DNA from: a virus
Taxonomy: Duplodnaviria; Caudoviricetes
Length of the DNA stretch: 45,987 bases
Direction: 5' to 3' (one strand)
Virus record (IMG/VR): IMGVR_UViG_3300025288_000034
Span: 1 to 45,987 of that record
Shown in pieces: positions 784-45,987 of the stretch. How positions within the stretch are numbered: the stretch's first letter is position 1; each line of letters starts with the position of its first letter. The notes under the pieces are model-generated. The model saw only the letters and a list, made by a program, of their open reading frames with translations. It was not told the origin of the DNA and did not search any database. A program made the position numbers and the translations under genes.

Positions 784-2133
784 TCAAGAGTCTTTCTGTT
801 CCGTCAAGAATTGCGCGAGGTTGTGGTTGCTCCCGCTTTTCTTCTCGCGCTTCACACGTTTTGCGCTGAGGAAAATGGTGCCCTGTTCATTCTGAGTCTG
901 CACTACATTCTTTGCCAGCACAAGGTCACTCACCGCCTCTACCACATCCTGCGGTCTCGCGTCGCGATGAAATGCCGCGCGCACAGCGGAGGCGCTGACT
1001 GGCCCGCCAGTGGAACGGAGGTATTCCAAGATTCCCTGTTTCAGCTTGGAGATTGGAGACATCCCGAACTGACCCAGCGCATCCGACATGCCCTTTTCGG
1101 TAAGGCGGAGAACAAGATTCGCCACCTCTACATCCTCCCCTTCAATTGTCAACTGCTTCCGCGACGCAGCCAAGGCGAGGGAGAGCTTTAGCAGGTGGGT
1201 GAAACGGCGCGCTTTGTAGTAGCTGAATCGTGGATCCGCTATATCCAATTCTGTGTTATACAGGCCCTCTGCGACACGTTTCGCCGCGTCCGAAATGTTT
1301 ACGGGCCCACGGAGATTCATGTTGACAAACGACAGGGTTTCTTTCAGCGACATAATCAAACTCGCATCCGGCATTGTCGGCCAGATTACGTCCTTGTAAA
1401 CTTCAGCGCCATGTACCAAAATGAATCTACTGAGGAACCCATGTCCGTCAGCGGTGGGAGGGAGAGTGATGCTGATAGTTGCGGGAGTCGTACAGGCGAA
1501 AATATTCATTAGGGTTTCCCGAACCGTAACCTCGCCCTTGGTTGTTTCGTATCGGTAATCATCCCCGTCATATGTCTGTACAAGGAAGTCCATCATTGAG
1601 TGGTTGTGTTGTCCGAGGGGGCCACTCAATTCCGACCAGAAGGCGGAGAGTACATGGCGATCACAGCGATCTAGCATGATCGGGGCCTCCGCCTCGTCGC
1701 CCTCCTCTGTATGATTCCCATTCACCTCCATCCCTGTCAGACCAAAGGGGTCCGCCGTCGCAGCTTCCAACGCGGCAACATCCTCTTTCGTCTGTGCCTC
1801 CTCGGAACCGCGAGCGAGTGCACGAATCAATCCCTGCCGCTGTCCTCCCGTGTCCGTGGGTGCGAAGCGTACATTTGTGGAGTCCTTTAACAACCTGTAA
1901 GCCACGCCCATGGCGGCGGTTTTCCGCGAAGCTGGCGGGCCGACTAGGAGGATGTAATGATTCGGGTAGATTTTCCCCACCATCCCAAAGGGGATGTACA
2001 CCCGCCGTCCAAGAGCAGCAGCCATGGTGCTGACACAGGCCCAGAGGTGGAAGAGTCGTGGAGGTTCTGTGTTTTCCACCGCCTTCATGTAGTTGGCGAT
2101 GTATTCACTGTGGAAGTCAATGTCCACGCGCAT
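784..2133 (-). CDS. DUF3987/VirE-like P-loop ATPase, putative replicative helicase without a primase domain
   Basis: TEPPRLFHLW...ALGRRV...YPNHYILLVGPPASRKT Walker A context; GFLSRFILV arginine-finger-like motif; possible winged-helix C-terminus. Confidence 0.7.
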   Translation of the reverse strand: MRVDIDFHSEYIANYMKAVENTEPPRLFHLWACVSTMAAALGRRVYIPFGMVGKIYPNHYILLVGPPASRKTAAMGVAYRLLKDSTNVRFAPTDTGGQRQGLIRALARGSEEAQTKEDVAALEAATADPFGLTGMEVNGNHTEEGDEAEAPIMLDRCDRHVLSAFWSELSGPLGQHNHSMMDFLVQTYDGDDYRYETTKGEVTVRETLMNIFACTTPATISITLPPTADGHGFLSRFILVHGAEVYKDVIWPTMPDASLIMSLKETLSFVNMNLRGPVNISDAAKRVAEGLYNTELDIADPRFSYYKARRFTHLLKLSLALAASRKQLTIEGEDVEVANLVLRLTEKGMSDALGQFGMSPISKLKQGILEYLRSTGGPVSASAVRAAFHRDARPQDVVEAVSDLVLAKNVVQTQNEQGTIFLSAKRVKREKKSGSNHNLAQFLTEQKDS

Positions 2134-2196: not shown

Positions 2197-2829
2197 CTAT
2201 GGGCTGGCTGTGGGCCACGCTTCCTTAATCGCGTCGAGGATGGCTTCGGCGGTTTCGTCCAACAGGGCATTCACGTTGGTGATGTCGATTCCGGAAACGT
2301 TGTAGTCGAGATAGTGTCGGGAGTCACCCTTGAACGTACAATCCCGCCGGTGAATGCGAAACAGCAGCAGGTCGGCGTGTCGTTTCATGTTGGTTTTGAT
2401 GTAATCAAATTCGGACTGCCGTCCTACAGTGCAGAGAATCACCAGGTTGGGTGCCTCAAGTTCGCGGACGCGTTTGTGCCACTCCTTTATCAGCCAGAGC
2501 GGATCACCCCGAAGGAAACACACGCGCTCCCAGTGGTGAATCATTAATAGTCGGGGCGTGGTTCTTGCTGCGGTCGTAGGATCGACCAAGCATTCGAGGT
2601 CTTTGCACGCCTGATAGACAGACTCCTCCACGCAGTCAGGAGATATCTCATTCAGGTACTCCCGTAGTGGTTCAACTGGATCCAGTCGCACCGCGTTGAA
2701 CCCCCCAAAGTTGAGTGCGGGCAGGATGAGATTCTCAATAGAAGTCTTCCCGGATTTTGGGGGCCCGCTCAACACAATCACCTTGCTGTTGATGGAGTGA
2801 AACGCAACTCGTGTGGCGTTTGTTGCCAT
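2197..2829 (-). CDS. Deoxynucleoside monophosphate kinase-like P-loop protein
   Basis: N-terminal VIVLSGPPKSGKT P-loop and C-terminal FKGDSRHY motif typical of phage dNMP kinases. Confidence 0.6.
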   Translation of the reverse strand: MATNATRVAFHSINSKVIVLSGPPKSGKTSIENLILPALNFGGFNAVRLDPVEPLREYLNEISPDCVEESVYQACKDLECLVDPTTAARTTPRLLMIHHWERVCFLRGDPLWLIKEWHKRVRELEAPNLVILCTVGRQSEFDYIKTNMKRHADLLLFRIHRRDCTFKGDSRHYLDYNVSGIDITNVNALLDETAEAILDAIKEAWPTASP

Positions 2830-3021: not shown

Positions 3022-3246
3022 CTAACCCAGGGCTTGCAGGGACTGAATCTCAACCCGAAGCTGCGCGGCTGCGGCTGGGGACATCTCGTCGAGGAAGCCT
3101 CCGCCGCCTTGAGCCGGTGCAGTGTCGGGATTCGGAACGAGGGCGAGGAGCGCGGCAAGATTCGCTTGAAGTTGCGTGAGCACGCCGGTCGCGGCACCCG
3201 TGGTCAAGTAAGAACCGAGTACCTGTACGCCAGTTGTTGCAGTCAT
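3022..3246 (-). CDS. Small Ala/Gly/Thr-rich hypothetical protein (74 aa)
   Basis: Strong AAGGAG RBS 9-10 nt upstream of ATG; collinear with neighbours; followed by a terminator. Confidence 0.75.
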   Translation of the reverse strand: MTATTGVQVLGSYLTTGAATGVLTQLQANLAALLALVPNPDTAPAQGGGGFLDEMSPAAAAQLRVEIQSLQALG

Positions 3247-3304: not shown

Positions 3305-5914
3305 TCAAGCGCGAATGCGATCTAAATCATACGGGTCGCCGGATTTCCAGGGAATCATCCCCTTCCCCCAATGCTTCCCCACGTTCGCATCGGTCTTGAC
3401 GCTGACTTGGTGCCCGTTGATGATAATCGGGCGCTCCATTACAAGCAAGAGGTTATACAGGGCTTCTTTCCAGCGGGGCGCGCGTGTATCCAACTGCCCC
3501 ACGAGAGAGTCATGGACCTGCAGGCAGGTCATTAGCCCGAACTCTTTGTCCTCCAATTTGAGGGGTTTCTCCTTCGCGTGCGCGTTTGGCCCATCGCGGA
3601 AGGTGGGGGGGATGTAGCCGAAGCGAATTTCCTCCATCGTGCGATTCATGTTCCCCGCTGTATCGCTTTGGCCATAGAACGCCGTTGCTTCGCGCTGAGT
3701 TCCCGAGTCTGTCGGGGTACCAATGAAGGAACGTGTCATCCCGAAAGCGTTGGTACACTTGCGTTCCTTCTTAAGGCGTTCCGCAATTTCCCCGTACCAG
3801 CCCTTCTTTGAAAGTCGAGGATATAGACCACGGAATCGATGCAACAGGGCTTGACAGAACCTGCACAAGGTTTCCTCATCCCACAACAGAGCTTGGTCGT
3901 AGCCCATTTTCACAGCAGCGGCGATCACAGACTCTCGACCCATGCTCACATATAACGTGCCCCCCGCCATCTGAAAGTTCGCCCCGTGGACAATACGCTT
4001 GGTGATGTTCCGAATCCCCGTGATGGGATGTGTAATCCTTGGGTCGTCCTTGTGGTTGCCCTTCACAATTTCCTCATAGGGGACTTTGAAAAAGAACTCC
4101 CCGTGTATGGCGTGAGAGTCTTGACCTGAGGACATCGTCTTGATGTACTTCTGGTCATTCGACTCATACGCCACAAACACCGCATCACTCTGGGAGTAGT
4201 CCACATCGAACAGGATGTAACCATCGTCCGCCACAAGCCAATCCCTCATTGACTTGCGGATGTTCTGCATGTTGGTACCATCCCAGAAGGGACTCGATGA
4301 GGAACTGTACCGCCATGTTTCGGTGCGCACGCTAACGGAGGAGCGCATCCTGTGAGTCGCTACATGCACATCACACACATTGCTAATTTGTGTGCGGGGC
4401 TCCATAGCGGCCTGCATTGAGTCCGAGACTCTTTTGAAAAACGGATGCTCCGTCGCGATCATGCGCAACGCGAGTTTGCCCGCGCTTTTGCCTTTCCCGG
4501 TTTTCCCTTTGATAATTTTTCCCTTCGCGTTGCGGGGAGTCGCACCCAGCAGGGTGTAAAACAATTCAGCTTTTTGCTGGGGGGAGTTAACATTGAACTC
4601 CGGGTCATCAATCAGACGACGGAAACTCTCGATGTTTGCATTGTATTGTTCTTCCAGTTTCTGCCTCAGCGCCTCGCGTTTTTCGAAGTCAGCTTTCAGG
4701 CCCCGCATTGTCATGGCGAGTCCGCTCAACATCTGCGGAAATTCATTGGCGTAATTGAACTTTACCTCTGGCGTGCCGGAGGCGAGGCGTAGGAGGAGGA
4801 GTCCACTGCACAATGTATAATGGCAATCAAGGCCGTTGTATCGCCAGAATCTCTCCATGTCCCTATCCCTTTGGCGGCCCTTCTCCTCTTTCAACCCCTT
4901 TAAGTCCTGCTTCCAATACGCATAATCATCCAACAGAATGCTCGCGATCACATCGAGAGATTTGTCCAGTTCCGGGTAGAGGGCATGCCACATATGCATT
5001 GTGTCAAGTTGGTAATTGTGCTGCGGCATTCCCCATGTGATGTTATAGGCGGAGTCGTAGGAACCGTTCTGATACACCTTGACTGACGGGTTCGCATTAA
5101 TGCGGCGCACCGTTTCCACGGCTTCTGCAAAGTCCGAGTCGTTCTGCCAGAACACTCCATCAGGTTGGAACTTGTCCGCGAACGGGATTACAAAAGTGCG
5201 CATTTCCCCGGTAGGTTTGAGTCCGGTGTAGCCGCTGCATGAGATGGTATATCCCCCCGCCTCGGCCGACCCCGTGGTTTCCAAGTCGTGGGAACTCAAC
5301 ACACAATCGTGGAGCCAGTGTTCCGCCTGCTTGAGGTCGAAGATTGTACGAGTCACGGAGTACTGGAAGGCTGGGAATTGGCGCTGCTTCCCATGCGCGT
5401 ATCTTGCAACCTTGGCCCAATCCCGTACCCACAACCAGTAGCCGTCCTTGACTTTGTAGACATCGCCCTGCCCTTCTAGGGAGTCTTCCAAGTCCTCATC
5501 CACACTCTTGGTTTTCTGTTGTCGATGAATCGCGGAGATGGGGGGGACAATGATCGAGGGGATACCTCTGTATGAATACACACTCCCCCGTGTCTTGCTT
5601 ATCTTGTCAGCCCCATAGATGATCCCGTTGAGAATCCCTAGTGCAGCACTGCATGAGGTGACAATCAGGTTGGGCTTGACCGTTTGAATCATGTGATCCA
5701 TGTAAGTTTTCACGGCGCGCCGCACACCCTCGTCCCCACTCAGGGTCATCTCCTTTTCATTCCCCCTCCGCTTGAGTGCCCCATCAACCACCTTGTGGAG
5801 ATTCGCAAACTGCACATCCTTGATGTCCAATTTGCAAGCCTGCAGAAGGCGAACGAAGGTGGGCATATAGCCTTCAGTGATTCCCAGAGGGTCGGTGAAG
5901 TAAAGGATTTTCAT
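3305..5914 (-). CDS. polA: Family A DNA polymerase with 3'-5' exonuclease and N-terminal degenerate uracil-DNA-glycosylase-like domain
   Basis: Exo motifs HDLETTG, YQNGSYD, YNGLD; motif A DYSQSD, motif B RNITKRIVHGANF, motif C QVHDS; start set at MKILYF (5914) because the longer ORF start overlaps a terminator. Confidence 0.93.
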   Translation of the reverse strand: MKILYFTDPLGITEGYMPTFVRLLQACKLDIKDVQFANLHKVVDGALKRRGNEKEMTLSGDEGVRRAVKTYMDHMIQTVKPNLIVTSCSAALGILNGIIYGADKISKTRGSVYSYRGIPSIIVPPISAIHRQQKTKSVDEDLEDSLEGQGDVYKVKDGYWLWVRDWAKVARYAHGKQRQFPAFQYSVTRTIFDLKQAEHWLHDCVLSSHDLETTGSAEAGGYTISCSGYTGLKPTGEMRTFVIPFADKFQPDGVFWQNDSDFAEAVETVRRINANPSVKVYQNGSYDSAYNITWGMPQHNYQLDTMHMWHALYPELDKSLDVIASILLDDYAYWKQDLKGLKEEKGRQRDRDMERFWRYNGLDCHYTLCSGLLLLRLASGTPEVKFNYANEFPQMLSGLAMTMRGLKADFEKREALRQKLEEQYNANIESFRRLIDDPEFNVNSPQQKAELFYTLLGATPRNAKGKIIKGKTGKGKSAGKLALRMIATEHPFFKRVSDSMQAAMEPRTQISNVCDVHVATHRMRSSVSVRTETWRYSSSSSPFWDGTNMQNIRKSMRDWLVADDGYILFDVDYSQSDAVFVAYESNDQKYIKTMSSGQDSHAIHGEFFFKVPYEEIVKGNHKDDPRITHPITGIRNITKRIVHGANFQMAGGTLYVSMGRESVIAAAVKMGYDQALLWDEETLCRFCQALLHRFRGLYPRLSKKGWYGEIAERLKKERKCTNAFGMTRSFIGTPTDSGTQREATAFYGQSDTAGNMNRTMEEIRFGYIPPTFRDGPNAHAKEKPLKLEDKEFGLMTCLQVHDSLVGQLDTRAPRWKEALYNLLLVMERPIIINGHQVSVKTDANVGKHWGKGMIPWKSGDPYDLDRIRA

Positions 5915-5934
5915 TTTGCTGCCTTGTTGAACGG

Positions 5935-5976
5935 GAAAAGAGGAGGGGCGAGATTTCATTGTATTCCCACCCCTCC
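5935..5976 (-). terminator. Probable terminator/attenuator hairpin between the SSB-like gene and the polymerase
   Basis: Minus-strand GGAGGGGTGGGA...TCTCGCCCCTCC stem (with G:U pairs) followed by TCTTTT. Confidence 0.5.
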
Positions 5977-6007
5977 AGAGCAAATCAACGTATCGAAACA
6001 ATTGCCA

Positions 6008-6520
6008 CTAGACTGCGATTTGGCCGCTGGCTTTTTCGATGATCGGATTGAGGTTCACAAACGGTCTGTCTTTGTCGTTCGGATTCTTCCGATGCTTCAC
6101 TTGGCCGAGGAATTTGTGTCCATTCAGCCCACCCGACATCAGCTCTTTGAGACTCATACCGGGATTGGGGGCGCCGATGTCCTTGAGGTACGCCTTCAGC
6201 CTGCCAAGTCCTTCGAGGGGATCGCTCTTGAGGATGAAGAAGGTTTCCACGTGAGATTTCCCGACCAGCTTTGCCTGTGATTCCGTGTCCGGATAGTCCG
6301 CCGACGCCACAGACAGTACTTCCAGCACCCGACATTTGACCTTCAGGGTGAATGAATCTCCACTCTTGGTTTCCGCTGTACCGGGCTTGACTTCTTCGAT
6401 TTCAAATCCCGCTTTCATGGGAGGGAGTGAAGTGAATCGCACCTCCACAATGTCTTCCAACGAAACGCCGGCGAGTTCCTCGAAGGCTTCATTGAATGCG
6501 TCGCTTTGCGTGTCAGTCAT
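6008..6520 (-). CDS. Putative single-stranded DNA-binding protein (DUF669-like OB fold)
   Basis: Beta-rich pattern, ETFFI, GRLKAYL, KFLGQVKHRKN; position directly after a Sak4-like ATPase; GAGG RBS. Confidence 0.6.
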   Translation of the reverse strand: MTDTQSDAFNEAFEELAGVSLEDIVEVRFTSLPPMKAGFEIEEVKPGTAETKSGDSFTLKVKCRVLEVLSVASADYPDTESQAKLVGKSHVETFFILKSDPLEGLGRLKAYLKDIGAPNPGMSLKELMSGGLNGHKFLGQVKHRKNPNDKDRPFVNLNPIIEKASGQIAV

Positions 6521-6549: not shown

Positions 6550-7617
6550 TTAGGAAGGTTTCCGTTTCAGTAATGCCAGTGGACTCGCCGCGGCTTTAAC
6601 AGACGCAGTTTTTCCAACAGGCATGGCGACCGTTCCACCAACCTTTCCTGTGGGATTCAGCACCGAGGTTGTCGCTGCCAAATTCGCAGGCGGTTCGTAG
6701 GGGTCATGGAGAATCAATGCCGGATCACCCTCAAAGGTGACTTGCTCCGGTACCGATCCCCCCGCTCGGCGCACAAGTTCCGCGAATGCAGCATCCTGTA
6801 CAGCGAGTCTCGTTGTGAAGCGACCGCCGGCTGAGCGCTCTGCGGTTGCTCCAAAGTCCACGATGCGCCGATCCATCACATCGATTTCCAGCCATCCCAC
6901 ATCGGTGAAGTAAGATGGGAGAGTCATTGCATGGGGGCGTGAGATGGATTTGGGGACCCATCTTGAAAATTCAATCTCCCGATTCTCTGTCTTCCCTGCC
7001 TCCCTCACGGAGCCCCGCTTGACTTTGTACTTGATAAATTCATCGGGATGGGCGATCACGATTACATGACAGGGGAGGCTGCGGATTCTTGACAACAAGT
7101 CTGTGGCAAAATTGTTGGCGCTGCCATACACTCCCAGTCCCGCCTTATCCACGCTTGATAAATCGATTCCCGCATCGAGAGCAATCGCGGACATCACGGA
7201 GTGGGATACCCCGGTCCAGGAATCAATCACCACAACCCAATCCCCTGTGAGTTTGGAGGCTGTGATGTCGTAGACTCGATCACCCACATCCATGGCTGGA
7301 CGGAGGCCCCGCGTTTTCGTATCATTCCATTTAAAGACTCCATCCGTGAGGAACTTCTTCAACAGCAACGCATTGCGGGGAATGTATTGTCCCTGCTCTG
7401 AGATCATGTCGGAGAAATTGAGGTAGAAGATTCGAGCCAATGCGTCTTTGGGAAGCTGCCCGATGGTGGGGCGGGAAACATCCCCGTCAAGGTACAGCAC
7501 CTTGAACCCCGCCACGGCAGCTTGCCCGGCATAATGAGTCTTCCCTGTCTTGCTGTCCCCCACAAGAAGGAGCTTCACCAGCTGCTCTTCCGGTGGCATT
7601 TCTGTGCCGATTGGCAT
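6550..7617 (-). CDS. AAA_24/Sak4-like ATPase (ssDNA annealing/recombination)
   Basis: KLLLVGDSKTGKT Walker A, LYLDGD, VVVIDSWT Walker B, HVIVIAH, LPSYFTDV. Confidence 0.8.
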   Translation of the reverse strand: MPIGTEMPPEEQLVKLLLVGDSKTGKTHYAGQAAVAGFKVLYLDGDVSRPTIGQLPKDALARIFYLNFSDMISEQGQYIPRNALLLKKFLTDGVFKWNDTKTRGLRPAMDVGDRVYDITASKLTGDWVVVIDSWTGVSHSVMSAIALDAGIDLSSVDKAGLGVYGSANNFATDLLSRIRSLPCHVIVIAHPDEFIKYKVKRGSVREAGKTENREIEFSRWVPKSISRPHAMTLPSYFTDVGWLEIDVMDRRIVDFGATAERSAGGRFTTRLAVQDAAFAELVRRAGGSVPEQVTFEGDPALILHDPYEPPANLAATTSVLNPTGKVGGTVAMPVGKTASVKAAASPLALLKRKPS

Positions 7618-8732: not shown

Positions 8733-9710
8733 TTATACAAGGCCCTTTTCAAGAAAGACATCCGCGACGATCCAGGGATTCCAATCATCCACCTTGTTTT
8801 CCAACTGGTCAAACCATGCTTGGATGTTCCGCGAGTCCCTTGACACACAGATGTCGAGAAATTTGCAGGGATAGTTGAACGCAACGCATCCACTTTCCCT
8901 GCGGGAGAACAGTTCCAACTCCAACATTGATTTAATGGAACGGAATTGGAGAATCTTCGCCGTCAGCCACTCCTGAATGGCGCCCTGCGTCTTTGTAAAT
9001 TCATACACCTGTACGCGGGGCTCAGGGAGGGAGAGATGACAGTCGTGATAGGAGACGTTAAACGACTCCACCGGGTTTCCAAGCAGGTGTTCCACAACAA
9101 CTCCATACGGGATTTGCTGGGAGTTGTACATGTATTCCGCTGTGCGGTCCCGAATCGTTGACTGGTGCGTCTTAATATCGGTAGCGAGAATTTCTTTCGT
9201 TGCCTTGTGCAACAACACCAAGTCGATGTACCCGATGAAAGCGATCCCTGCGAAACCCGGCATCTCGGTGTTGAGGAATCTCAATTCAAATGGTAGCTCC
9301 ACACATGGGACTTCCACCCCATCAGGGCGTTTGAATCTCATGATGTCGTAGTCCCACATATGGAATTGCTTGATCGCCTCCTCAAATGTGGACATCACAA
9401 CATCCCAGGTACGTCGATTCTGTTGCACCGTGAGAGCCAACTCCCATGGGTACGCCCGTAGTAATTCGTAATACGCGCGATTCTCATCATGCGATACTAC
9501 AAACTCCTGATACGCGCGGTGGAACGCCCTACCGACGGCAGCAGGGATGGAGTCATCATCCGGCCGCTCCTTCCCCTGCCCGTAGAGTTTCTGAAACTCA
9601 AACTTGCGGGGGCAGAAGGCGAACGTGTTGGTGGAGGAATGGGAGACTCTCAGCCAAGGGAGTTCCTTGTTTGGAGGCGGGGACATCACGTTTTGTTGCA
9701 TGAGGTTCAC
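8733..9710 (-). CDS. PD-(D/E)XK exonuclease, Cas4/AddB-like with four-cysteine staple
   Basis: SHSS...FCPRKF, G.AFH, ELPFE, GYIDLV, DIKT, Q..Y and C-terminal C-x6-C-x5-C. Confidence 0.85.
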   Translation of the reverse strand: MNLMQQNVMSPPPNKELPWLRVSHSSTNTFAFCPRKFEFQKLYGQGKERPDDDSIPAAVGRAFHRAYQEFVVSHDENRAYYELLRAYPWELALTVQQNRRTWDVVMSTFEEAIKQFHMWDYDIMRFKRPDGVEVPCVELPFELRFLNTEMPGFAGIAFIGYIDLVLLHKATKEILATDIKTHQSTIRDRTAEYMYNSQQIPYGVVVEHLLGNPVESFNVSYHDCHLSLPEPRVQVYEFTKTQGAIQEWLTAKILQFRSIKSMLELELFSRRESGCVAFNYPCKFLDICVSRDSRNIQAWFDQLENKVDDWNPWIVADVFLEKGLV

Positions 9711-13174: not shown

Positions 13175-15271
13175 TCATAGCTCCTTTGCTTCTGGCAATT
13201 TCGGCTCCTTTGGTCCCAGTCCCTTGACCTCGCGGATTTCCCCCATTGACTCCATGTACTGGCGGAAAGACTGGACTTTCTCTTCGAGAGTCTTTCCCTT
13301 GACCCTCTGGTTGGCAAGGGCGCGCTGCAATCCACGGGGTGTGTACAAGAGGAGAATCTTTTCGCTCGCGCGAGTACACGCAGTGTAAAGCCATTCCCTT
13401 GACAGCATACGCCCGAATACTTCGTGGCAAATCACAATTGTTGTGGGACATTCTGCGCCTTGCATCTTGTGACAAGTGGAGGCGTAGGCGAGTTGTAACG
13501 ATTCGGTTTCCCCGCGGGTGCGGAAATGCACAAAGCGATGAACTTCGACGGAAGAGGAGGAATCTGCCTCATCATCCTCCTCGTCTGTTGATCCAATTGC
13601 TTCGCATGCGTGGAAGTCCACGGTGATGGAGTGCGAGGCTTCGCCTTTCAAGTAAGATTCCTTCTGTTTTTCCTGTCCACCATCCTGCAGTTTCTGGTGC
13701 AGCATCGCCTCGAACTCTTCGGGATCGAATCCCTCGCGGTCAATTTCTGCTTGTTCCGCCATGTACTTCTGCACAGACTCCCAATCCCCCACTGCGCGAG
13801 GATCTCCCCCATACGCCCCGTTCTTGGTGATCTCAGTGATGATTCCCATCATCCCATTCGTCACCCCGGTGGCGTAATCGTTCTTTGTCGCCATCACCTT
13901 GTCGCCCACGGCGAGCAGTTTGCGACTCCTCCCACAATCAATCATCACGCGTTTTGCGTCGGGATTGAAGAACATAGAGAGGGGCGTGTTGAGGGGAATC
14001 TGTCCGAGAGGAGCGGTGGGTGACTCTGGCTTGTCTCCATTCACCGCAGTGATGATGTTGTCGAACAGTTCGTTGTAGACTCCCTTGCGCTTCAGTCCTC
14101 GAACGAGGGCGAGAACCTGCTGCGAGGCTTTCAATGGATCACGACTCAATGCCATCATGCGGAAGTTGCCGTCGTCCTGGGGAGTCTTTCCTTGCAAAAT
14201 ACGATGCGCGTTGGGGACTATCTGGTCCTTAGAACCCACCTGCCGGTGCACATGCGTGAGTTCTGCAACGCCCCATTTTGCCATTGCGAATCCAAAGACG
14301 CTTTTCCCGTGCACTGGGGGCAATTGGTTGATATCCCCGATCATGTACACACGGGTTCCATCTTGCATTGCGGCGATGAATCGCTCCCACAAATCCAGCG
14401 AGACCATGGAAGCTTCGTCCACAATCACCACATCCCACGGCATTTTGTTGGACTCCGTGTGCCAGGGTTCGAAGATTCTCTTTGTAACAAGCGCGCCGTT
14501 TTCATCCATACCTTCCACCATCACGGGCATGTAACGCAGCGCACGGTGGATTGTTTTGATATTCCCGTGCCATGATTGAGGAAAGTTCTTGCGAATCTGC
14601 CTTACGGAACGCCCGGTGAAACCGCACAACAGGATAGAAGGAATCCATCTTTCGGGGACATTTGTGGAGTCTTCCCCTGCGAGCAGTTTTTGTTTGCGCT
14701 CCACATAATTCGCGTCTACGCTTTTCACGGTGTTCGCGATGTGTTGTACAAACGCTTTTGTGCAAGTGGTTTTTCCGGTTCCCGCTGCGCCAATGAGACA
14801 GCCGCAGGAACGGAAAGCGAGTTTTTCCAAAGCGCGTAATTGGGAGTCGTCGAATGTAAAGCCCTCGGGAATCAGGGTGCCCCCTTGAATTGACAAGGCC
14901 AGTACAGGCGTTTCAAGTGCCTGGGGCACAATGGTAGCCTTCAGGGCGAGACTCTCCACATCCTCTACCTTTGCCGGGAGCGCCGCATCAAGTATTGCAC
15001 GTTGCGCGATGCGTTGCTGTGCCACATTCGCACCCTGCGATTTAAGGGACTCCATCACGGCGAGTGCCTGGGGGACTCCCAACAACTGATCCCTCATTTG
15101 GGCGGGATTGACGTGTGGGAGTCGTTGCGCGCGCATTAACGTGGGTGGGAGCGGCGCCTTTGGCAACGCGGTTTGGGAAGAGAGCGCTTTGATGTTCCCA
15201 GAGAGTCGCGACAGCGCGTCCTGCGCCTTTGGTGACAATGCCGGCGCGCGTGTGGGTGCTTTGGATTTCAT
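13175..15271 (-). CDS. SF1B RecD2/Dda-like DNA helicase
   Basis: GAAGTGKTT, TIHRAL, VIVDEASM, IGDINQLPPV, GDKVM, AYASTCHKMQG, LYTACTRA motifs. Confidence 0.93.
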   Translation of the reverse strand: MKSKAPTRAPALSPKAQDALSRLSGNIKALSSQTALPKAPLPPTLMRAQRLPHVNPAQMRDQLLGVPQALAVMESLKSQGANVAQQRIAQRAILDAALPAKVEDVESLALKATIVPQALETPVLALSIQGGTLIPEGFTFDDSQLRALEKLAFRSCGCLIGAAGTGKTTCTKAFVQHIANTVKSVDANYVERKQKLLAGEDSTNVPERWIPSILLCGFTGRSVRQIRKNFPQSWHGNIKTIHRALRYMPVMVEGMDENGALVTKRIFEPWHTESNKMPWDVVIVDEASMVSLDLWERFIAAMQDGTRVYMIGDINQLPPVHGKSVFGFAMAKWGVAELTHVHRQVGSKDQIVPNAHRILQGKTPQDDGNFRMMALSRDPLKASQQVLALVRGLKRKGVYNELFDNIITAVNGDKPESPTAPLGQIPLNTPLSMFFNPDAKRVMIDCGRSRKLLAVGDKVMATKNDYATGVTNGMMGIITEITKNGAYGGDPRAVGDWESVQKYMAEQAEIDREGFDPEEFEAMLHQKLQDGGQEKQKESYLKGEASHSITVDFHACEAIGSTDEEDDEADSSSSVEVHRFVHFRTRGETESLQLAYASTCHKMQGAECPTTIVICHEVFGRMLSREWLYTACTRASEKILLLYTPRGLQRALANQRVKGKTLEEKVQSFRQYMESMGEIREVKGLGPKEPKLPEAKEL

Positions 15272-15486
15272 TTTAAAAACCTCAGAATCTCTGCTACACT
15301 TTTGCGTTGTTTGTGATACAGCACCGCCACATCACGCACACAGTAATTTTCCGTTGCATAATTCAGCGCATCGCGCAGAACGCGGGGCAGTGCGTCAAAC
15401 AAGCGCAACTCATTTTCGATACTAACGACTCGATTTAACGCGGGGTCAGTATCTAATGCGGTATTGGTATTGGTATTCGTTTTCAC
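15268..15486 (-). CDS. Small hypothetical protein, possibly DUF6525-like (72 aa)
   Basis: FDALPRVLRDALNYA motif; coupled overlaps with both neighbours. Confidence 0.6.
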   Translation of the reverse strand: MKTNTNTNTALDTDPALNRVVSIENELRLFDALPRVLRDALNYATENYCVRDVAVLYHKQRKSVAEILRFLK

Positions 15487-16469
15487 AGTTTAATTCTCCC
15501 GCCTTTCACTCCGCCTTGGTGAATTGAATGTTTGAGGCGTTCGGCGCGCTCCATCTGTTTCAGCATCTTTGTGCCGTAATCATATGAAGAGGGACGCGGA
15601 GGCGGGCGGAGAGTCGTGTCACCCTTCTTCCGCGTATCCATCTCGATACCCGCTTCAAGCAACGCATTGATGAAGATCATGCGAGATTCTTGTGCCTCCC
15701 GGTCTTTCCGCCGTTGGCGAAGCGTCGCCGCGCTCAATTGTGGAGAGGCATTCCCGTCAGGAATGCGGGAGAGTTGCAATCCCACCGCATGTCGCGCGTA
15801 ATATGTACCACTGCGCGCGCCGTTTAACCGCGCCTCTTCAATCTCGGCGTCACAATGTGTGAGGAGTCGCGCGAGGGATGCCTTGAAATCTGTGAGGAAG
15901 TGCTGGAATGAGAGTCCCACCGGGGGCGCTATCGTGTGAAGACCGCGCCGCGCGTCTAATTCCAGTAATGAATCAAGTGCGAGGGAAATCGTCATTTCTG
16001 GCAATTCTGCAAGGTGTTGGAATAATTCGATTTTGCGCGCGATGAATTGATTATGCGCCTGCACAGATTCCCATCGCGGCATGTATGTCTGTTGTGCCTC
16101 TTCCGCCTTGAATGAAGTACTCTTGTGGGTGTTTTCCATCGCATCGAAAACGACTCCGCATAGGTAGACCGTCAAACCCACGGGGTCACTTTCGCGCAGA
16201 GCGGTATAAGAGTCTCGTCTCTTAATGATCCACCCAGGCCCCATGCGCGTAGCCGCCAATGTCGCTTCGCGTATGCGCATCGCGTCTGAGCGAATGGACA
16301 GGGGAATTGATTCCCACATTTCTTCCGTCATGACTCCCATCAATCTTCCCGTGGCACGGCAATAAATGCCCCGCGGGTTGAATGTTGTGACCGCGCTCGC
16401 TTCATGTGCGTCATGTGCGGATGCGTCATAGGTGTCTGTTAGGTTGGTGTGCATGAGACTCTCATTCAT
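15483..16469 (-). CDS. Hypothetical protein (328 aa), first gene of the leftward arm
   Basis: Long ORF immediately downstream of the leftward promoter. Confidence 0.8.
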   Translation of the reverse strand: MNESLMHTNLTDTYDASAHDAHEASAVTTFNPRGIYCRATGRLMGVMTEEMWESIPLSIRSDAMRIREATLAATRMGPGWIIKRRDSYTALRESDPVGLTVYLCGVVFDAMENTHKSTSFKAEEAQQTYMPRWESVQAHNQFIARKIELFQHLAELPEMTISLALDSLLELDARRGLHTIAPPVGLSFQHFLTDFKASLARLLTHCDAEIEEARLNGARSGTYYARHAVGLQLSRIPDGNASPQLSAATLRQRRKDREAQESRMIFINALLEAGIEMDTRKKGDTTLRPPPRPSSYDYGTKMLKQMERAERLKHSIHQGGVKGGRIKL

Positions 16470-16505
16470 TTCTGTGCCTTAGGGGCCGCGACGCCCCGAT
16501 CATCC

Positions 16506-16534
16506 ACCCTAGCACACTTTCCCTTGCATGTCAA
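16506..16534 (-). promoter_or_regulatory. Leftward sigma70-type promoter for the replication arm
   Basis: TTGACA-N17-TAGGGT with extended -10 TG. Confidence 0.75.
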
Positions 16535-16574
16535 CCTATGTTATAACATTTTTTCTCGACTCTCTCCTTCGGTT

Positions 16575-16874
16575 GCGCGCATGAGTGCGCACGCGCACGC
16601 GCATGAGTGTGAATGTGTGAATGTGTGAATGTGAATGTACCGTGCGTGCGCATGTGAGTCCCTGCACGGGGGTGTCCCTGCACGGGGGTGGGGTGGGGTG
16701 GGGGGTGTCCCTGCACGGCTACAGGTCGGCGCGTTTGCTGCGCAAACGACTCATTCCTACATACATGCCTGTCCGGGGGGCGCCGCCCTCTTCTGTGAAT
16801 GGGACATGGACATGGATGTGAATGGGACATGGATGTGGATTCGCCCCGCTGTTACCGTTGTTACAGGTCGGCGC
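16575..16874. repeat. Field of short direct repeats
   Basis: GTGTGAAT x3+, GTCCCTGCACGG x3, GGGGT runs, GTGAATGGGACATGGA x2, TACAGGTCGGCGC x2. Confidence 0.85.
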
Positions 16875-16907
16875 CCCCCTTGCGGGGGGAGTCATTTTGT
16901 CCCTTCC

Positions 16908-17273
16908 ATAACATAACTAACATAACCACTTCCCAACCGCCCCCGCCCCCGCACGCCCTGACCTCGCTCTTTTGCATAACATGTAGGTATATGATTCCAC
17001 CCCCATGTTTCCCCTGTATTCCCCACCTGTATTCTCAAGGGCGTTATTGCTTTTACAGGGCGTACACAAGTTTTTTAAAGAATTAAATTGTTTTTGAGGG
17101 AGTCCCTTTGCCATTTTTTCGCGGGGGAGGGGAGTACAGGTGCTGTTGTGGATGGGATTCACATCCCCCCCCACGCGCGCGTACTCATACACCTATGCGC
17201 AATTCCGCGAGGTCAGGCCGGCAGGGGGCCCCCCGCTTGTGAAATGGTTATGTTAGTTATGTTAGTTATGTTA
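16908..17273. repeat. Large interrupted inverted repeat centred on an AT-rich core; candidate replication origin
   Basis: Four nested arm pairs (16908-16928/17245-17265; 16957-16967/17207-17217; 16984-16994/17185-17195; 17024-17034/17132-17142) centred near 17083-17090. Confidence 0.75.
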
Positions 17274-17436
17274 TTCTCATTGTAGGTGATTCCCTGCCAT
17301 TCCACTTGTAGGGGAAAAACGTGCTGAAAGTGTCCCAATCCATTTACGCCCCGCGTGCGCGCGCATTTTCATGCTGCACTGCAACATTTTTTACCCCCGG
17401 AATACCGGCCTTTTTCGGGCTCTTCTCGCGTATGCG

Positions 17437-17466
17437 CTTGACATCCCCCTCGCGCGCGCGTATGTA
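17437..17466 (+). promoter_or_regulatory. Rightward sigma70-type promoter for the early cassette
   Basis: C-TTGACA-N17-TATGTA; same architecture as the promoter at 19213. Confidence 0.65.
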
Positions 17467-17522
17467 TAAGGGGCGATGCAATTCCGCGTCGCTTCACAAC
17501 GCGAAACAAAAGGGTTCAAGCA

Positions 17523-18422
17523 ATGAATACCAATGCACAAGCGCAAGCACTAGCACAAGCGCAAGAAGTCACGGCCCCGGCCACGGCTCCGGTCGGCTAT
17601 AAAGAGATGACCAAGATTCCGGTTCGCACAATCCTTAGCGCGCCGGAGGACGGATCGGACTCGCATATAAACACGCTTCGAGTCATGCTGGCGAAAATCT
17701 TGCAGACGCCCGGCGCAGTGGAAACCCGCTTCGACATCGCCGGACTCGACCGAGATAGCGGCGAGGTTGATTTCTCTGTTTATGCGGGAAAAGACATCTA
17801 CATCTGCCGCGTGATGAACAAAGGCGCAGACATCAGGACGATTCTTGTCCAGCCGGTCCCGCGCCTCGCGGACGTGCTGGAAGCGCCGAATGCTTCGCAG
17901 TGGATTGCTCACACGTTAACGCGGGCGCTAGCGCAACAGCTTGTGCGCCCGATTCGGAAGCCGTCGAATGCGGAAATTGATCCGGGCATTACGGCGGACG
18001 CACTTGCTGCGATTCCGCTGTCAATCGACGATTATGTGCTCAGCCGTGCCGGCGCGGGCAGCAAGTGGACCGTGTGGAAGTCGCACGCGAAAGCCCTGAT
18101 CGACACGCTTGCGGGTGCTTTTGCCGAGTTCCGCGCGATCCGAGTCACGCAAGACCTGCTGCGGCAGGTTCTCGCTAGCAAGGCATTCGCCGAGCGGGTA
18201 TTCCCGGCGATGGAAGAACGGGGCGTGTTCGTGAAAGTGATCGGCGCTCTGGTGAAGCACGCGGCGAAGGATGGGGTTGAAGACTCATTGCCGCGTGAGT
18301 GGTTGGCGACGCGCGATAGCGTAGGGGCGGACATCGAACTCGAAGCCGAAGGCGAAGAGGCGGTTGACTTGGACCTCCTTTTCGGCGATGACGACGACGA
18401 GGACGAGGACGACAACGCATAG
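17523..18422 (+). CDS. Hypothetical early protein with very acidic C-terminal tail (299 aa)
   Basis: Own promoter and terminator; ends DIELEAEGEEAVDLDLLFGDDDDEDEDDNA. Confidence 0.85.
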   Translation: MNTNAQAQALAQAQEVTAPATAPVGYKEMTKIPVRTILSAPEDGSDSHINTLRVMLAKILQTPGAVETRFDIAGLDRDSGEVDFSVYAGKDIYICRVMNKGADIRTILVQPVPRLADVLEAPNASQWIAHTLTRALAQQLVRPIRKPSNAEIDPGITADALAAIPLSIDDYVLSRAGAGSKWTVWKSHAKALIDTLAGAFAEFRAIRVTQDLLRQVLASKAFAERVFPAMEERGVFVKVIGALVKHAAKDGVEDSLPREWLATRDSVGADIELEAEGEEAVDLDLLFGDDDDEDEDDNA

Positions 18423-18459
18423 TTGCTCCGCCTACGGACGATGTGACTCTAACAGACTG

Positions 18460-18497
18460 GCGCGCCGCGATGTTCACTCACCGCGGCGCGCTTTTTT
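18460..18497 (+). terminator. Intrinsic terminator
   Basis: GCGCGCCGCG/CGCGGCGCGC 10-bp stem followed by TTTTTT. Confidence 0.85.
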
Positions 18498-18498
18498 G

Positions 18499-18527
18499 TT
18501 GCATCGCGCCGCGCGCGGGTGTAGGGT
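18499..18527 (+). promoter_or_regulatory. Sigma70-type promoter for the 70-aa gene
   Basis: TTGCAT-N17-TAGGGT; the -10 is identical to that of the leftward promoter. Confidence 0.55.
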
Positions 18528-18570
18528 GATTGAGTCGACAACACACACACATGAAAGAAAGGCGCAGACC

Positions 18571-18783
18571 ATGCATGTATTCACAAACAATCTAGACGAA
18601 TACCGGGCCGCTTGGCTTCGACACGTCGAGGAGTTAAGGCCCCTCGCTTTCACGGCTGGAATTGACACCGAAGAATGGAACGCAACGCGGCAGCGCCTAA
18701 CCGATTGGGTGGACAAGGCGGCGGCGGCGATCACACCGAGGGCAGCCGAGGCGACTCCGGCGGCGGCGCACCCAGCAGAGTAA
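18571..18783 (+). CDS. Small hypothetical early protein (70 aa)
   Basis: AAAGG RBS; flanked by promoter and hairpin. Confidence 0.7.
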   Translation: MHVFTNNLDEYRAAWLRHVEELRPLAFTAGIDTEEWNATRQRLTDWVDKAAAAITPRAAEATPAAAHPAE

Positions 18784-18814
18784 TTGTCCGCTTCGCGCAC
18801 CGCGCGCCTCCCCC

Positions 18815-18851
18815 AGGCCGGTATTCAATCCAACGAATACCGGCCTTTCTT
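18815..18851 (+). terminator. Hairpin/terminator after the 70-aa gene
   Basis: Perfect 12-bp stem AGGCCGGTATTC/GAATACCGGCCT followed by TTCTT. Confidence 0.65.
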
Positions 18852-19212
18852 ATATAGCCTTTCTGCGACTCATTCTCATTCTCAAAAATCCTCACTCGCT
18901 ACGCTCGCTCGAAGTAAGGAGTCGGGCTGGTCGCCCGACAAGTCATTCTTTCAGCGCAAGGCGACTCGCTAGTCGCTCGTCAGGTTTTTCTTGAGCCTTT
19001 TTCTGGCGAAGGGGGGAGGGTATCCCCCCATGATGAAATCGCGGCCTCACTCTTAATACGACCCCCGCCCTGTCCTCACAAAAAAATAAAAAACCTTCAC
19101 GATTCCACTGCCGGACGGAAATAACCGTCGGGGGGAGTCACTCTTTGCGGGGTGCATTCCTTCCAACGGAAATAACGCTCCAGGGGAATCCCTTCCTGTG
19201 GAACGATTAACA

Positions 19213-38118: not shown

Positions 38119-40671
38119 ATGCCTGGTTTTGTAGATTTCAGCCTCAAACCTGAAAAAACTCCAATCGAGAAATTCGGAGAAGACACGGCTTTGACTCCAC
38201 AGGCGTCTCAAGTGCCTATGGTTGAGATCCCAGTCCCTCTGAATCTCGCCTCTGCGTTGGACGGACAGGCGCGCGCGCGCAATGCTGTGGATGAAACCTC
38301 GTTCAATGTTCGCAATGCGATTAAGCAAACGGACATTCAAATACAAGCGGGGAAAGAAAGACTCTCCGCGTTACAACTCGCTTCAGAGGCCGCGGAGGAA
38401 CAGGAGCGAATTGACTCCAGCAAGGGAATCGTTACCGGTACCATCAAAGACATTTTTGGCAAAGGCGGGAGTGTCAAGCGCGCGGTGAATGATATTTTCG
38501 GTGTGAGTCAAGCGAGGGCCACAAGAAAGGCTCGCACGGCCAAGGATACTCTGTTGATCTCCGACGCCACGGCGGAACAACAGCAACTGGAATTGACTCG
38601 TGAAGTACTTGTTAAAGGCTCCCCGTTTGCGCAGCGCGCCGCCGTTGAGAAGATTGCGGAGGAGGATGAGGCGAGGAAGAACCGGCAGGCGGGGATAGAT
38701 CTTGAGCGGAAACGGCTGGGATTGAGTCAACAACAGTTCGCTCGTCAAGTACGGGATGATTTAGCTGGTGATCTGTTGGCGCGCCCGGCCTCGGAAACTG
38801 CACAAATGATTCAATTCCTGGAACAAAACGGGCAGAATGGATTCACCCACACCGATCCCGGTACAGGGATTACGAGAAAATTTTCCATTCCTGAGTTGAA
38901 ATCCATGCAGATGAAACAGGAAACAGCAGAGTTGAATCTCTCTGGAGCCCGCAACGCTGCGTTGTTGAATGACCTCAAAACGCAAGACGAGTTCAATAAG
39001 CGTTTCATTGGGGGGCTGACTCGGGCGCAAACCGTACAGGTTCTCCAAAACAATGGAGTCTTTCAGCCCGCCGATGGGGGAGACCCGGTGCAACTTGATG
39101 TGGCGCAGTTGACGGAGCACTTTGGGGTAGTGAATGCTGCGAGAGATGCGGTGTTCTCGGCAACTTCCGCGCGAGCAATCCTCGATCCTGCCACCGGAGA
39201 AACGACTCTTTCCGCCCCCGTCGAACGGATGCGCGTCAAATTGGAGGGGTTTGAGAACAGCGTTAATAGTTTCCAGAGTCGTGTGCAGGCAATGTTTCCT
39301 GGAGGGACTCCGCCGGATGTGGTACAGGAGCGGCTGTTACAGTTCCAGTCTTCCATCTCCCAAGCAGCCGAGTCTCTTGTTCAACTTTCAAGTGGAGAGG
39401 CGGAACTGACGCCGGGACTTGAGGAAGAAACTGACGAGGAGTTTGCGCAACAACGCAAGGCACTCAGGGAGACTGTGGACGAGATCGCAACCTCGGTCGC
39501 CGGGGACTCCAAAGCTGTAAAGCGCTTTGTCGCATCAACGCTGCTGGGAGAGACTCCCTCCACCGCCGACGCGCGTGGGGTTATTGAGGACGCAGCATCA
39601 TCACCGCAATCAAAGACTGTGGTACGCGCAACAGCGGCGAGTCGTGGAGCGGTGCAGGCATTTGCGGATGTAGGCAAGAGCGCGCTGGCGAAGCAGGTTG
39701 CGGCGGACTCCAACAACACCAAAACTCTGGACCCAAATGCGTCTTTTCAGGAGTCGCTCCTCGCGACTTTCGCTGGAAGCAACCGCACCGACAAAGCAGC
39801 AGCGGAACGTGATGCCGCTAGAATCAGAGCAGAGGCGTTCCAAGCCGTTGCGGATCGCTTCGCTCTTATTGTCCCAGGCGATGTGTTTGCCGGGGACTTG
39901 GGGAATATCTCGCCCGCGCAGGCTGAACAACTCAGGGGCCATCCGTTTTTCAGCGAGGTGAATCTGTTGGGGGTAACGCAACAGGCGAACGCTGCGCTGG
40001 AACAATTTGCGAGACAGAGGAATCTCCCGAGTACCTCTCCGGAGGTGAGGACACAAGCCTCCACGGAATACGCGAAAGCGCTGTTACAGACTCCCACAAA
40101 TGACCCAGAGTTCCCCCGCGCTTTTGACGCCTTTGTTGACTTGATTCAACGTGGTGGCCTTGATGTGATTCGGGAGGGGTTGACTGGTGTTGGTGCGGTG
40201 GGGAGTCCCCTCGATGCGGCTCTCGCGCAAGAGGCGGGTCCGCAAGCGGCTGCGGCGACATTGGTATTCGCGGAAGATATTGTGAAGCAAGGGCAGCAGT
40301 TGTTGCGCAACAAAGCTAAGGTGAAACCCACAGCGGATAATGTCTTCCTTGGGGCTGGCGGGGGGAGACTCTACCTGGATGAGATGCTCAGAGCGATTGC
40401 GGCGGACGGTACCTTCGCGACGCAGGAACAGATTCAGCAACTGAAGCCTGCGCTGTCATCAGATACTTTCCCATCACGCAATCTCGGCGGAAGTGCACTT
40501 GGTCCACCGGCAGGACCTATAACAAACACGCCATCCGTCATCCGTTCTAGGGTTCTCAATCAATCCCTCGCGAATCCGGAGCTGGAAAAAATCCGGAAGC
40601 GCGTTGCAAAGGCGTGGCCTGTGTTCGAGCAGACTGTGATCGACCAGCAGTTTTTCGCCACGGAGGAATAG
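38119..40671 (+). CDS. Putative internal virion/ejection protein (850 aa)
   Basis: Ala/Gln-rich helical, Cys-free; AGGAG RBS; position. Confidence 0.65.
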   Translation: MPGFVDFSLKPEKTPIEKFGEDTALTPQASQVPMVEIPVPLNLASALDGQARARNAVDETSFNVRNAIKQTDIQIQAGKERLSALQLASEAAEEQERIDSSKGIVTGTIKDIFGKGGSVKRAVNDIFGVSQARATRKARTAKDTLLISDATAEQQQLELTREVLVKGSPFAQRAAVEKIAEEDEARKNRQAGIDLERKRLGLSQQQFARQVRDDLAGDLLARPASETAQMIQFLEQNGQNGFTHTDPGTGITRKFSIPELKSMQMKQETAELNLSGARNAALLNDLKTQDEFNKRFIGGLTRAQTVQVLQNNGVFQPADGGDPVQLDVAQLTEHFGVVNAARDAVFSATSARAILDPATGETTLSAPVERMRVKLEGFENSVNSFQSRVQAMFPGGTPPDVVQERLLQFQSSISQAAESLVQLSSGEAELTPGLEEETDEEFAQQRKALRETVDEIATSVAGDSKAVKRFVASTLLGETPSTADARGVIEDAASSPQSKTVVRATAASRGAVQAFADVGKSALAKQVAADSNNTKTLDPNASFQESLLATFAGSNRTDKAAAERDAARIRAEAFQAVADRFALIVPGDVFAGDLGNISPAQAEQLRGHPFFSEVNLLGVTQQANAALEQFARQRNLPSTSPEVRTQASTEYAKALLQTPTNDPEFPRAFDAFVDLIQRGGLDVIREGLTGVGAVGSPLDAALAQEAGPQAAAATLVFAEDIVKQGQQLLRNKAKVKPTADNVFLGAGGGRLYLDEMLRAIAADGTFATQEQIQQLKPALSSDTFPSRNLGGSALGPPAGPITNTPSVIRSRVLNQSLANPELEKIRKRVAKAWPVFEQTVIDQQFFATEE

Positions 40672-40677
40672 AGAGTC

Positions 40678-45942: not shown

Positions 45943-45972
45943 TTGAGAGCCCTTGTTACTGAACGTGTGATG

Positions 45973-45987
45973 AAGCGGCGGGAGTCC
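45973..45987 (+). terminator. 5' arm of the junction-spanning terminator
   Basis: AAGCGGCGGGAGT pairs with ACTCCCGCCGTTT at 15-27. Confidence 0.75.

Follow-up and report, generated by a model that had tools for sequence, protein, structure and literature searches.

What becomes of sugar selection in a DNA polymerase when its steric gate changes? In textbooks family A DNA polymerases have an unvarying Glu at this gate, and the family A polymerase (PolA) encoded at 3305..5959 (-) of the virus record IMGVR_UViG_3300025288_000034 carries Asp instead. Below, the whole stretch of 45,987 nucleotides that was analysed is called the window, and its polymerase of 884 residues P0001. The original prediction, made from the letters of the window, saw ribo-permissive-type substitutions in the active site and proposed altered sugar or base selectivity, possibly for making RNA primers in a primase-less genome or for handling a non-standard nucleotide. 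We find by sequence comparison that Asp710 (E. coli numbering) is fixed in over 100 sequence clusters and has become the mark of four distinct phage lineages, cultured phages included. The Asp gate switches together with a partner residue at position 852, and on balance we judge it probable that the nucleotide pocket was rebuilt and is largely closed to ribonucleoside triphosphates (rNTPs), not opened.

The polymerase and its nucleotide pocket

P0001 is the only DNA polymerase of this phage. Its open reading frame (ORF) spans 3305-6001 (-), with the called start at 5959 and an upstream TTG at 6001 that would add 14 residues. Pfam DNA_pol_A (PF00476) matches above its cut-off (E 5e-20), and the AlphaFold2 (AF2) model, with a predicted local distance difference test score (pLDDT) of 91, matches Klenow folds, among them 1d9d with Z 27.4 and a root-mean-square deviation (rmsd) of 4.6 over 561 aligned residues. 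The hallmarks of family A are conserved, namely D587 in motif A, R650 and K654 in motif B, D817 in motif C and R550, the Arg of TGR. The absence of the Glu steric gate, at which P0001 has Asp592, marks a variant and is no ground for excluding the protein from the family.

Residues were mapped onto E. coli Pol I from MG1655 by alignment with P0001; the alignment with KlenTaq is free of gaps across motif A. Motif A reads DVDYSQSDAVFVA and has the core D587-Y-S-Q-S591-D592 at 4184..4201 (-), while motif B, at 3968..4012 (-), reads RNITKRIVHGANFQM. S591 (codon 4187-4189) corresponds to I709 and D592 (4184-4186), at the gate, to E710; D587 is encoded at 4199-4201. In motif B, which includes R650 and K654, H658 (3986-3988) corresponds to F762, N661 (3977-3979) to I765, F662 (3974-3976) to Y766 and Q663 to G767. 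The motif 6 helix (3659..3682 (-); helix 752-780 in the model) contributes A760 (N845), Q764 (Q849) and T767 (A852, which switches in step with the Asp gate), and motif C, QVHD, lies at 3509..3520 (-), with D817 at 3509-3511. In E. coli numbering, which is used from here on, the pocket therefore consists of S709, D710, V712, H762, N765, F766, Q767, A845 and T852; R712V, I765N, G767Q, N845A and A852T had not been listed in the original prediction. The catalytic D705 and D882 are kept, as are R668, R754, K758, Q849 and the exonuclease carboxylates.

A contig from a second study spans 3510-4216 without a difference and one from a third study spans 3823-4127. The residues are no assembly error, and their original reading and mapping are confirmed. 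The 3'-5' proofreading exonuclease domain (4715..5368 (-)) retains D225, E227, D302, Y374 and D378 (P0001 numbering), all five invariant in 119 homologues, so that the catalytic and exonuclease sites are intact, as had been claimed. N-terminal to it lies a domain that resembles a uracil-DNA glycosylase (UDG) of family 4 (5387..5920 (-)), which superimposes on 1l9g with Z 12.2 and an rmsd of 3.2 over 142 aligned residues (model residues 14-191). The positions that we take to be its catalytic motifs are degenerate, and the domain is likely inactive.

Distribution and recurrence of the Asp gate

The pocket residues are shared widely. S709, D710, H762 and N765 are each present in 120 of the top 120 homologues and so are no chance event; this conservation of S-D and His was a check that the original prediction had called for. 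Position 766 is Phe in 118 of these homologues and Tyr in two. One search pattern behind loci L005-L083 contained His762, a bias because of which the proportions of this residue were taken from the top homologues and from a pattern-free set of 151 representatives at 50% identity. At the gate, 142 of the representatives could be scored, of which 115 have Asp, 27 Glu and none any other residue. Of the 115 Asp representatives, 94 have His762, 20 Tyr762 and one Phe762; at position 766, 88 have Tyr, 26 Phe and one Gly. Judged by these sequences, the traits that the family shares with Glu-gated PaP2-like phages are a small residue at 709 together with His762 and Asn765, while Asp710 defines a deep clade and Phe766 belongs to subclades.

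Y766F, which had been counted as part of the signature, is thus present in P0001 and its closest homologues and missing from most Asp-gated representatives, and for the same reason we rejected it as a necessary compensating change. Phe766 occurs in 47 of 133 Asp and in none of 82 Glu sequences among 215 family PolAs, rows that are not independent of each other; a paired test of Asp against Phe766 gave p 0.5-1 with only two independent pairs. Four of the 20 Asp-gated representatives with Tyr762 (P0236, P0244-P0247, P0259, P0261 and others) were placed on a tree, where they form a single clade nested among His762 rows, which suggests from the sequences a return to an aromatic residue. Further pocket changes, in cultured phages, are seen in the PaP2-like Glu group (e.g. 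L002, L028-L083), where 66 of 82 sequences have Tyr in place of His734 in the D-x-H motif and Asn frequently replaces Tyr706.

Trees were built without the trait columns by a quick IQ-TREE search, with support from the Shimodaira-Hasegawa-like approximate likelihood ratio test (SH-aLRT) only. The first tree used 62 of 84 rows, the 22 dropped being one truncated row, near-duplicates and overlapping fragments. In this tree five Asp loci (L047, L066, L068, L077 and L083) nest inside the Glu group with support of 99-100. L059 (Glu) and L047, L068 and L077 (Asp) make up a close sister pair. A wider tree of 61 chosen rows requires four changes between Glu and Asp, whose direction is not readable. 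The four Asp lineages are the clade of the window, the nested five-member lineage, a clade of Mel-JY34 and VS-ABTNL-3, and an actinophage clade, in which phiAsp2, Mischief19, TP1604, JustBecause and WaterT all have D710 together with H762.

Residue 852 and a probably rebuilt gate

Co-variation was scored in the 215 family PolAs, one further row being without the motif. Asp at the gate is accompanied by Thr at 852 in 131 sequences, by Ser in one and by a gap in one; Glu is accompanied by Ser in 78, by Asn in three, by a gap in one and by Thr in none. The large Asp clade differs from the Glu group at 17 columns; at no more than two of these, namely the gate and 852, does the nested five-member Asp lineage side with the large clade. 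The actinophage Asp clade has T852 in four of five members and the Mel-JY34 clade V852 in three of three, with Ala at this position in E. coli and Gly in T7. R668 and Q849 are the known partners of the gate, and in pol theta Q849 hydrogen-bonds the gate carboxylate (PMC6158600). R668 is invariant in all 215 sequences and Q849 is present in 214. Residue 852 follows Q849 by three residues, one turn further along the same modelled helix. The joint switch of Asp and Thr suggests that the gate was rebuilt rather than opened, and together with the invariant partners and the absence of Gly or Ala at the gate it favours a compensated pocket.

We hypothesize that the shorter Asp gate is held in place by the bulkier Thr852, one helical turn from Gln849. 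Thr852 would pack under Asp710, and its side chain beneath the gate may offset the methylene that the gate has lost, while His762, Asn765 and Ser709 could form a polar substitute for the usual hydrophobic Phe/Ile core. In Taq, E615 and Y671 are joined by a Glu-Tyr hydrogen bond (PMC6158600). Once this bond is lost, Tyr766Phe would become allowed, and the finding of Phe766 only with Asp fits such a loss. An enzyme of this kind is predicted to make ordinary DNA still and to exclude most rNTPs.

Several points weigh against this model. Glu-gated Kuura and LS06 have Ile852 and Val852, respectively, and Asp-gated phiAsp2 has Ala852, so that a beta-branched residue at 852 looks permissive for Asp and not diagnostic. 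A sign test would need more than the two independent switches available, the trees carry only SH-aLRT support from a quick search, and the contact between 710 and 852 is deduced from helix position in the model. By Pol I mutagenesis, each change taken singly (small 709, no aromatic residue at 762, N845A) would point to lower selectivity and favour some leak. That Asp is so strictly conserved would likewise be expected if selection favoured a new and looser optimum.

Sugar selectivity

Some leakiness of the gate is thus possible from the sequence. If pronounced, it would make P0001 a replicase that inserts ribonucleoside monophosphates (rNMPs) far above the level of Pol I or T7 gp5, and the rNMP-studded genome would be tolerated or even useful, e.g. 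against host nucleases; we regard this as unlikely, though worth serious consideration. Asp is one methylene shorter at the position that faces C2', and Ser709 resembles hydrophilic I614 substitutions that admit nucleoside triphosphates, such as I614K (PMC6158600). The aromatic ring at 762 has been described as an assistant of the gate in a bioRxiv survey, the accessible part of which gives only Tyr, Phe and Leu for viruses at this site, and this assistant is lost in P0001. Repeated gain of Asp, with four changes on the tree, could be adaptive. Taq E615D, too, is said to raise rNTP use.

On the other hand, the gate drifts to Gly, Ala or Ser in 0 of 142 representatives, it co-switches with the space-filling residue 852, and the proofreading exonuclease is intact. 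No gene for rNMP handling tracks the Asp gate. Among the loci compared, neither an RNase-H-like nor a base-modification gene follows Asp, and an Rv2179c-like nuclease is present in 9 of 16 large-clade loci, 4 of 4 loci of the second Asp lineage and 18 of 40 Glu loci. The engineered ribo-permissive PolAs have a Gly gate (Taq E615G, pol theta E2335G) or I614K (PMC6158600, PMC4215692), and Asp at the gate is described as a tolerated conservative change that preserves activity (PMC4215692). We consider it improbable that a widespread clade has a naturally ribo-tolerant PolA, with frequent genomic ribonucleotides or with primers of its own making beside the MCM-like helicase; such a clade would be the natural counterpart of engineered Taq RNA-polymerase mutants.

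Priming

Could the altered gate stand in for a primase? The DUF3987 protein encoded at 784..2133 (-) (Pfam PF13148) bears the label "DNA primase" in PHROG (phrog_14296) and GenBank, and its counterparts in PaP2, 119X, PaMx41 and Tiera are annotated in the same way. All 40 Foldseek matches listed for its AF2 model (pLDDT 89) are MCM AAA+ subunits (best E 2e-8), and on the basis of this fold we reject the primase label in favour of an MCM-like AAA+ helicase without a primase domain. Because the annotated "primase" folds as such a helicase, the whole PaP2-like family seems to be without a recognisable primase. Searches of the window and of near-complete clade genomes turned up no primase of the Toprim, Prim-Pol, DUF3854 or RepB type (Toprim_2 and Prim-Pol each in 0 of 5 of these genomes; DUF3854 in the window 0 at E<=1). 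With phmmer, the primase domains of five cultured phages matched nothing at E<=0.05 in the six-frame translations of the window and of five clade genomes, whereas both controls were matched. The lack of a recognisable primase, on which the original prediction built, is borne out by these searches. The orphan ORFs 15483-16469 (no usable family from the ESM Atlas) and 17523-18422 (no family or ESM Atlas match) leave room for a novel primase. The 1754-aa virion protein was considered as a primer-making RNA polymerase and rejected, the DxDGD motif being present in 1 of 51 homologues and absent from the copy of the window.

That the polymerase makes its own RNA primers by means of the altered gate, and so replaces the missing primase, is nevertheless very unlikely. 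The empty searches of the complete window and of the near-complete clade genomes speak for it, and so does the fact that PolA adjoins the MCM-like helicase in every one of the 60 loci spanning the region, since CCPol, the one PolA known to prime, also lies beside a helicase (PMC7581432). CCPol, however, primes with deoxyribonucleoside triphosphates (dNTPs) and keeps E710/F762 (PMC7581432). The Glu-gated relatives PaP2, PaMx41 and Tiera are equally primase-less: Toprim_2 is present in 0 of 3 complete genomes of such relatives (G009-G011), PaMx41 and PaP2 carry only the DUF3987 helicase mis-annotated as primase, and the PolA-DUF3987 module is found in 40 of 40 spanning Glu-gated loci. Conversely, all five of the cultured actinophages with Asp710 and His762 that were checked have a primase gene next to PolA or fused with it. 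The TOPRIM-like DUF3854 is matched in phiAsp2 (fused) and TP1604, Mischief19 has a homologous N-terminus, and a RepB-type domain (below the Pfam cut-off) is encoded by JustBecause and a Prim-Pol by WaterT; the woodruffvirus Geonosis is likewise listed with a primase (PMC11536984). As Asp occurs with and without a primase and Glu without one, the gate does not track primase loss, and D710 with H762 in these five primase-encoding phages is, for the two residues, an outcome that the original prediction itself had named as contrary to its proposal. Self-priming with dNTPs by the whole PaP2-like family, independent of the gate, is possible. Priming would be a separate, family-wide matter, and the gene set (Sak4, exonuclease, Dda) points to host primase, host transcripts or recombination-dependent starts as its likely sources.

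Non-standard nucleotides

A pocket tuned to a non-standard nucleotide is likewise very unlikely. No synthesis pathway was found: PurZ, thymidylate-synthase-like, hydroxymethylase and 7-deazaguanine genes are absent among 46 window and 140 neighbour proteins, and purZ and datZ have no match among the 46 called ORFs of the circular genome. Both DpoZ clades have Tyr766Phe, as does P0001 (PMC8599892, PMC10201439), but a Tyr-to-Phe mutant of Taq works in vivo without Z genes (PMC8599892) and most Asp lineages retain Tyr766. A gene for a deoxyribonucleoside monophosphate (dNMP) kinase-like protein adjoins PolA in 19 of 24 large-clade and 0 of 55 Glu loci, but in 0 of 5 of the nested Asp lineage; being specific to one clade, the kinase does not track the gate. 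A dCTP deaminase is encoded in 4 of 4 spanning loci of the second Asp lineage, yet this enzyme is also present in 11 of 40 Glu loci and is missing from all 16 large-clade loci. Among the neighbour proteins, dGTP diphosphohydrolases are encoded in both Asp and Glu loci, and a family 2 (GT2) glycosyltransferase (L022) and a P-loop nucleotide kinase (L006) are scattered singletons.

Comparison with known systems

The nearest cultured relatives of P0001 are the PolAs of the Pseudomonas phages PaP2, 119X and PaMx41 (Fredfastierviridae, Jamesmcgillvirus), Polaromonas phage Tiera, EBPR podovirus 3 and Aeromonas P5, with 26-28% identity. The PaP2/Tiera group is the sister clade of that of the window (support 99) and shares with P0001 a small residue at 709, H762, N765, A845 and the lack of a primase, as well as the gene order Dda - exonuclease - Sak4 - PolA - DUF3987 - large virion gene, a layout also seen in the PaMx41 and Tiera records. 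It differs in having E710, Y766 and S852, where the clade of the window has D710, T852, in part F766 and usually the dNMP kinase. The likeness to Fredfastierviridae was judged on two proteins, PolA (26%) and DUF3987 (29%). No biochemical study of the polymerases of this group was found in the literature searched. PaP2 PolA has 801 aa; that of PaMx41 (L001:13803-15944) stops before motif C, with 713 aa and a downstream piece of 95 aa, probably because of a frameshift in the record.

The cultured phages Mel-JY34 (of Microcystis) and VS-ABTNL-3 (of Vibrio) have PolAs with A709-D710, H762 and N765 and a DUF3987 helicase directly downstream, but these form a separate branch (~22-24% identity) with Y766 and V852, and an N6/N4 DNA methylase is encoded. 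The VS-ABTNL-3 gene (L106:13956-17090) is split in two, with an unrelated ORF of 184 aa between the halves. The PolAs of phiAsp2 (Pas55), Woodruffvirus (TP1604, Mischief19), JustBecause and WaterT share D710, H762, mostly N765 and, in four of five, T852; they belong to a distant clade with V/A709, Y766 and an adjacent or fused primase of TOPRIM-like or archaeo-eukaryotic (AEP) type. The N4-like UDG-PolA (cluster 17 of Czernecki et al. 2023, PMC10201439) resembles P0001 in its degenerate N-terminal family-4 UDG fold, active exonuclease and length of 800-900 aa, but has Phe762 where P0001 has His658; N4-like phages are not among the 36 tblastn matches of P0001. CCPol-MP of SCCmec is also a PolA beside a helicase without a classical primase (PMC7581432). 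It is without most of the exonuclease domain, keeps E710/F762, needs MP and has a D5-type helicase, Cch2 (PMC7581432), whereas P0001 has a full exonuclease domain and D710/H762. DpoZ of the phiVC8-like and Wayne-like phages shares Phe766 with P0001; the accessible descriptions of DpoZ list no UDG fusion, no Z-synthesis genes were found in the window, and Phe766 is a subclade trait here.

Genome context

The window is a complete circular PaP2-like podophage. A single contig, from a run that may be that of the source sample, covers both 1-2875 and 40232-45987 and bridges the two ends, which thus join into a circle, and CheckV gives a completeness of 97%. A terminase, a portal, an SU10-type capsid and the 1754-aa virion protein are encoded; no tRNA genes were found. 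The replication arm has the order Dda/RecD helicase, PD-(D/E)XK exonuclease, Sak4, a conserved 170-aa protein, PolA, dNMP kinase, DUF3987 and endolysin, and so contains the PaP2-like module of a UDG-PolA with H762 followed by DUF3987, with Sak4, the exonuclease and Dda upstream. These genes encode a Dda/RecD2-like helicase of superfamily 1B (13175..15271 (-)), the PD-(D/E)XK exonuclease (8733..9710 (-)), a Sak4-like ATPase for annealing single-stranded DNA (6550..7617 (-); AAA_24, phrog_124) and a dNMP-kinase-like protein (2197..2829 (-)) that matches phrog_139 (E 7e-17) and the profile of T4 dNMP kinase 1dek (E 3e-4). The conserved 170-aa protein (6008..6520 (-); family 5, in 46 loci) has no Pfam or PHROG match and is, from its position only, a putative single-stranded DNA-binding protein.

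A 74-aa ORF directly after PolA (3022-3246 (-)) is a candidate accessory protein; its C-terminal part resembles family 18, which follows PolA in 12 Asp-clade and 0 Glu loci. Between PolA and the kinase and helicase genes lies a 9-bp tandem repeat in five copies (2846-2890), which we rejected as a conserved iteron origin, since 27 Asp loci have no similar array in the first 1.2 kb downstream of PolA. What lies between PolA and the helicase varies in single genomes and may be a GT2 glycosyltransferase (L022:13014-13988), a 211-aa protein of unknown function (L025:12927-13562) or a dATP/dGTP diphosphohydrolase (L018:13113-13745). At the switch of gene direction, the region 16470-19200 is long and poorly coding, with short tandem repeats and one orphan ORF of 299 aa (17523-18422), and is possibly an origin or a genome end.

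Novelty and implications

A phage PolA with His762 or Asp710 was not found described in the literature searched, a search outside of which most subscription papers lie. "His762" is absent from PMC6302109 and PMC9069017. In the available part of PMC10201439, the descriptions of all 19 clusters are silent on His762 and on an Asp gate, logos and supplements, which could show these residues, being excluded, and "PaP2" and "119X" do not occur; PMC13697223, as far as accessible, treats active-UDG PolAs of T-modified phages. The kind of enzyme is itself known, and what is new is the Asp clade of the window, the pattern of four lineages and the partner residue 852. The original prediction is thus supported in part: it mapped the residues correctly, and the sites are intact and a recognisable primase is absent as it held, while the link to self-priming, Y766F as a signature and the non-standard nucleotide are not supported.

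If the gate were leaky after all, these phages would have ribonucleotide-rich DNA and would be a source of enzymes for modified-sugar synthesis. For the family at large, PaP2-like phages replicate without a recognisable primase. Cultured carriers of the Asp gate exist in TP1604, WaterT and Mel-JY34, and the gate and residue 852 together offer a natural, directly testable two-residue model of re-engineered sugar selection.

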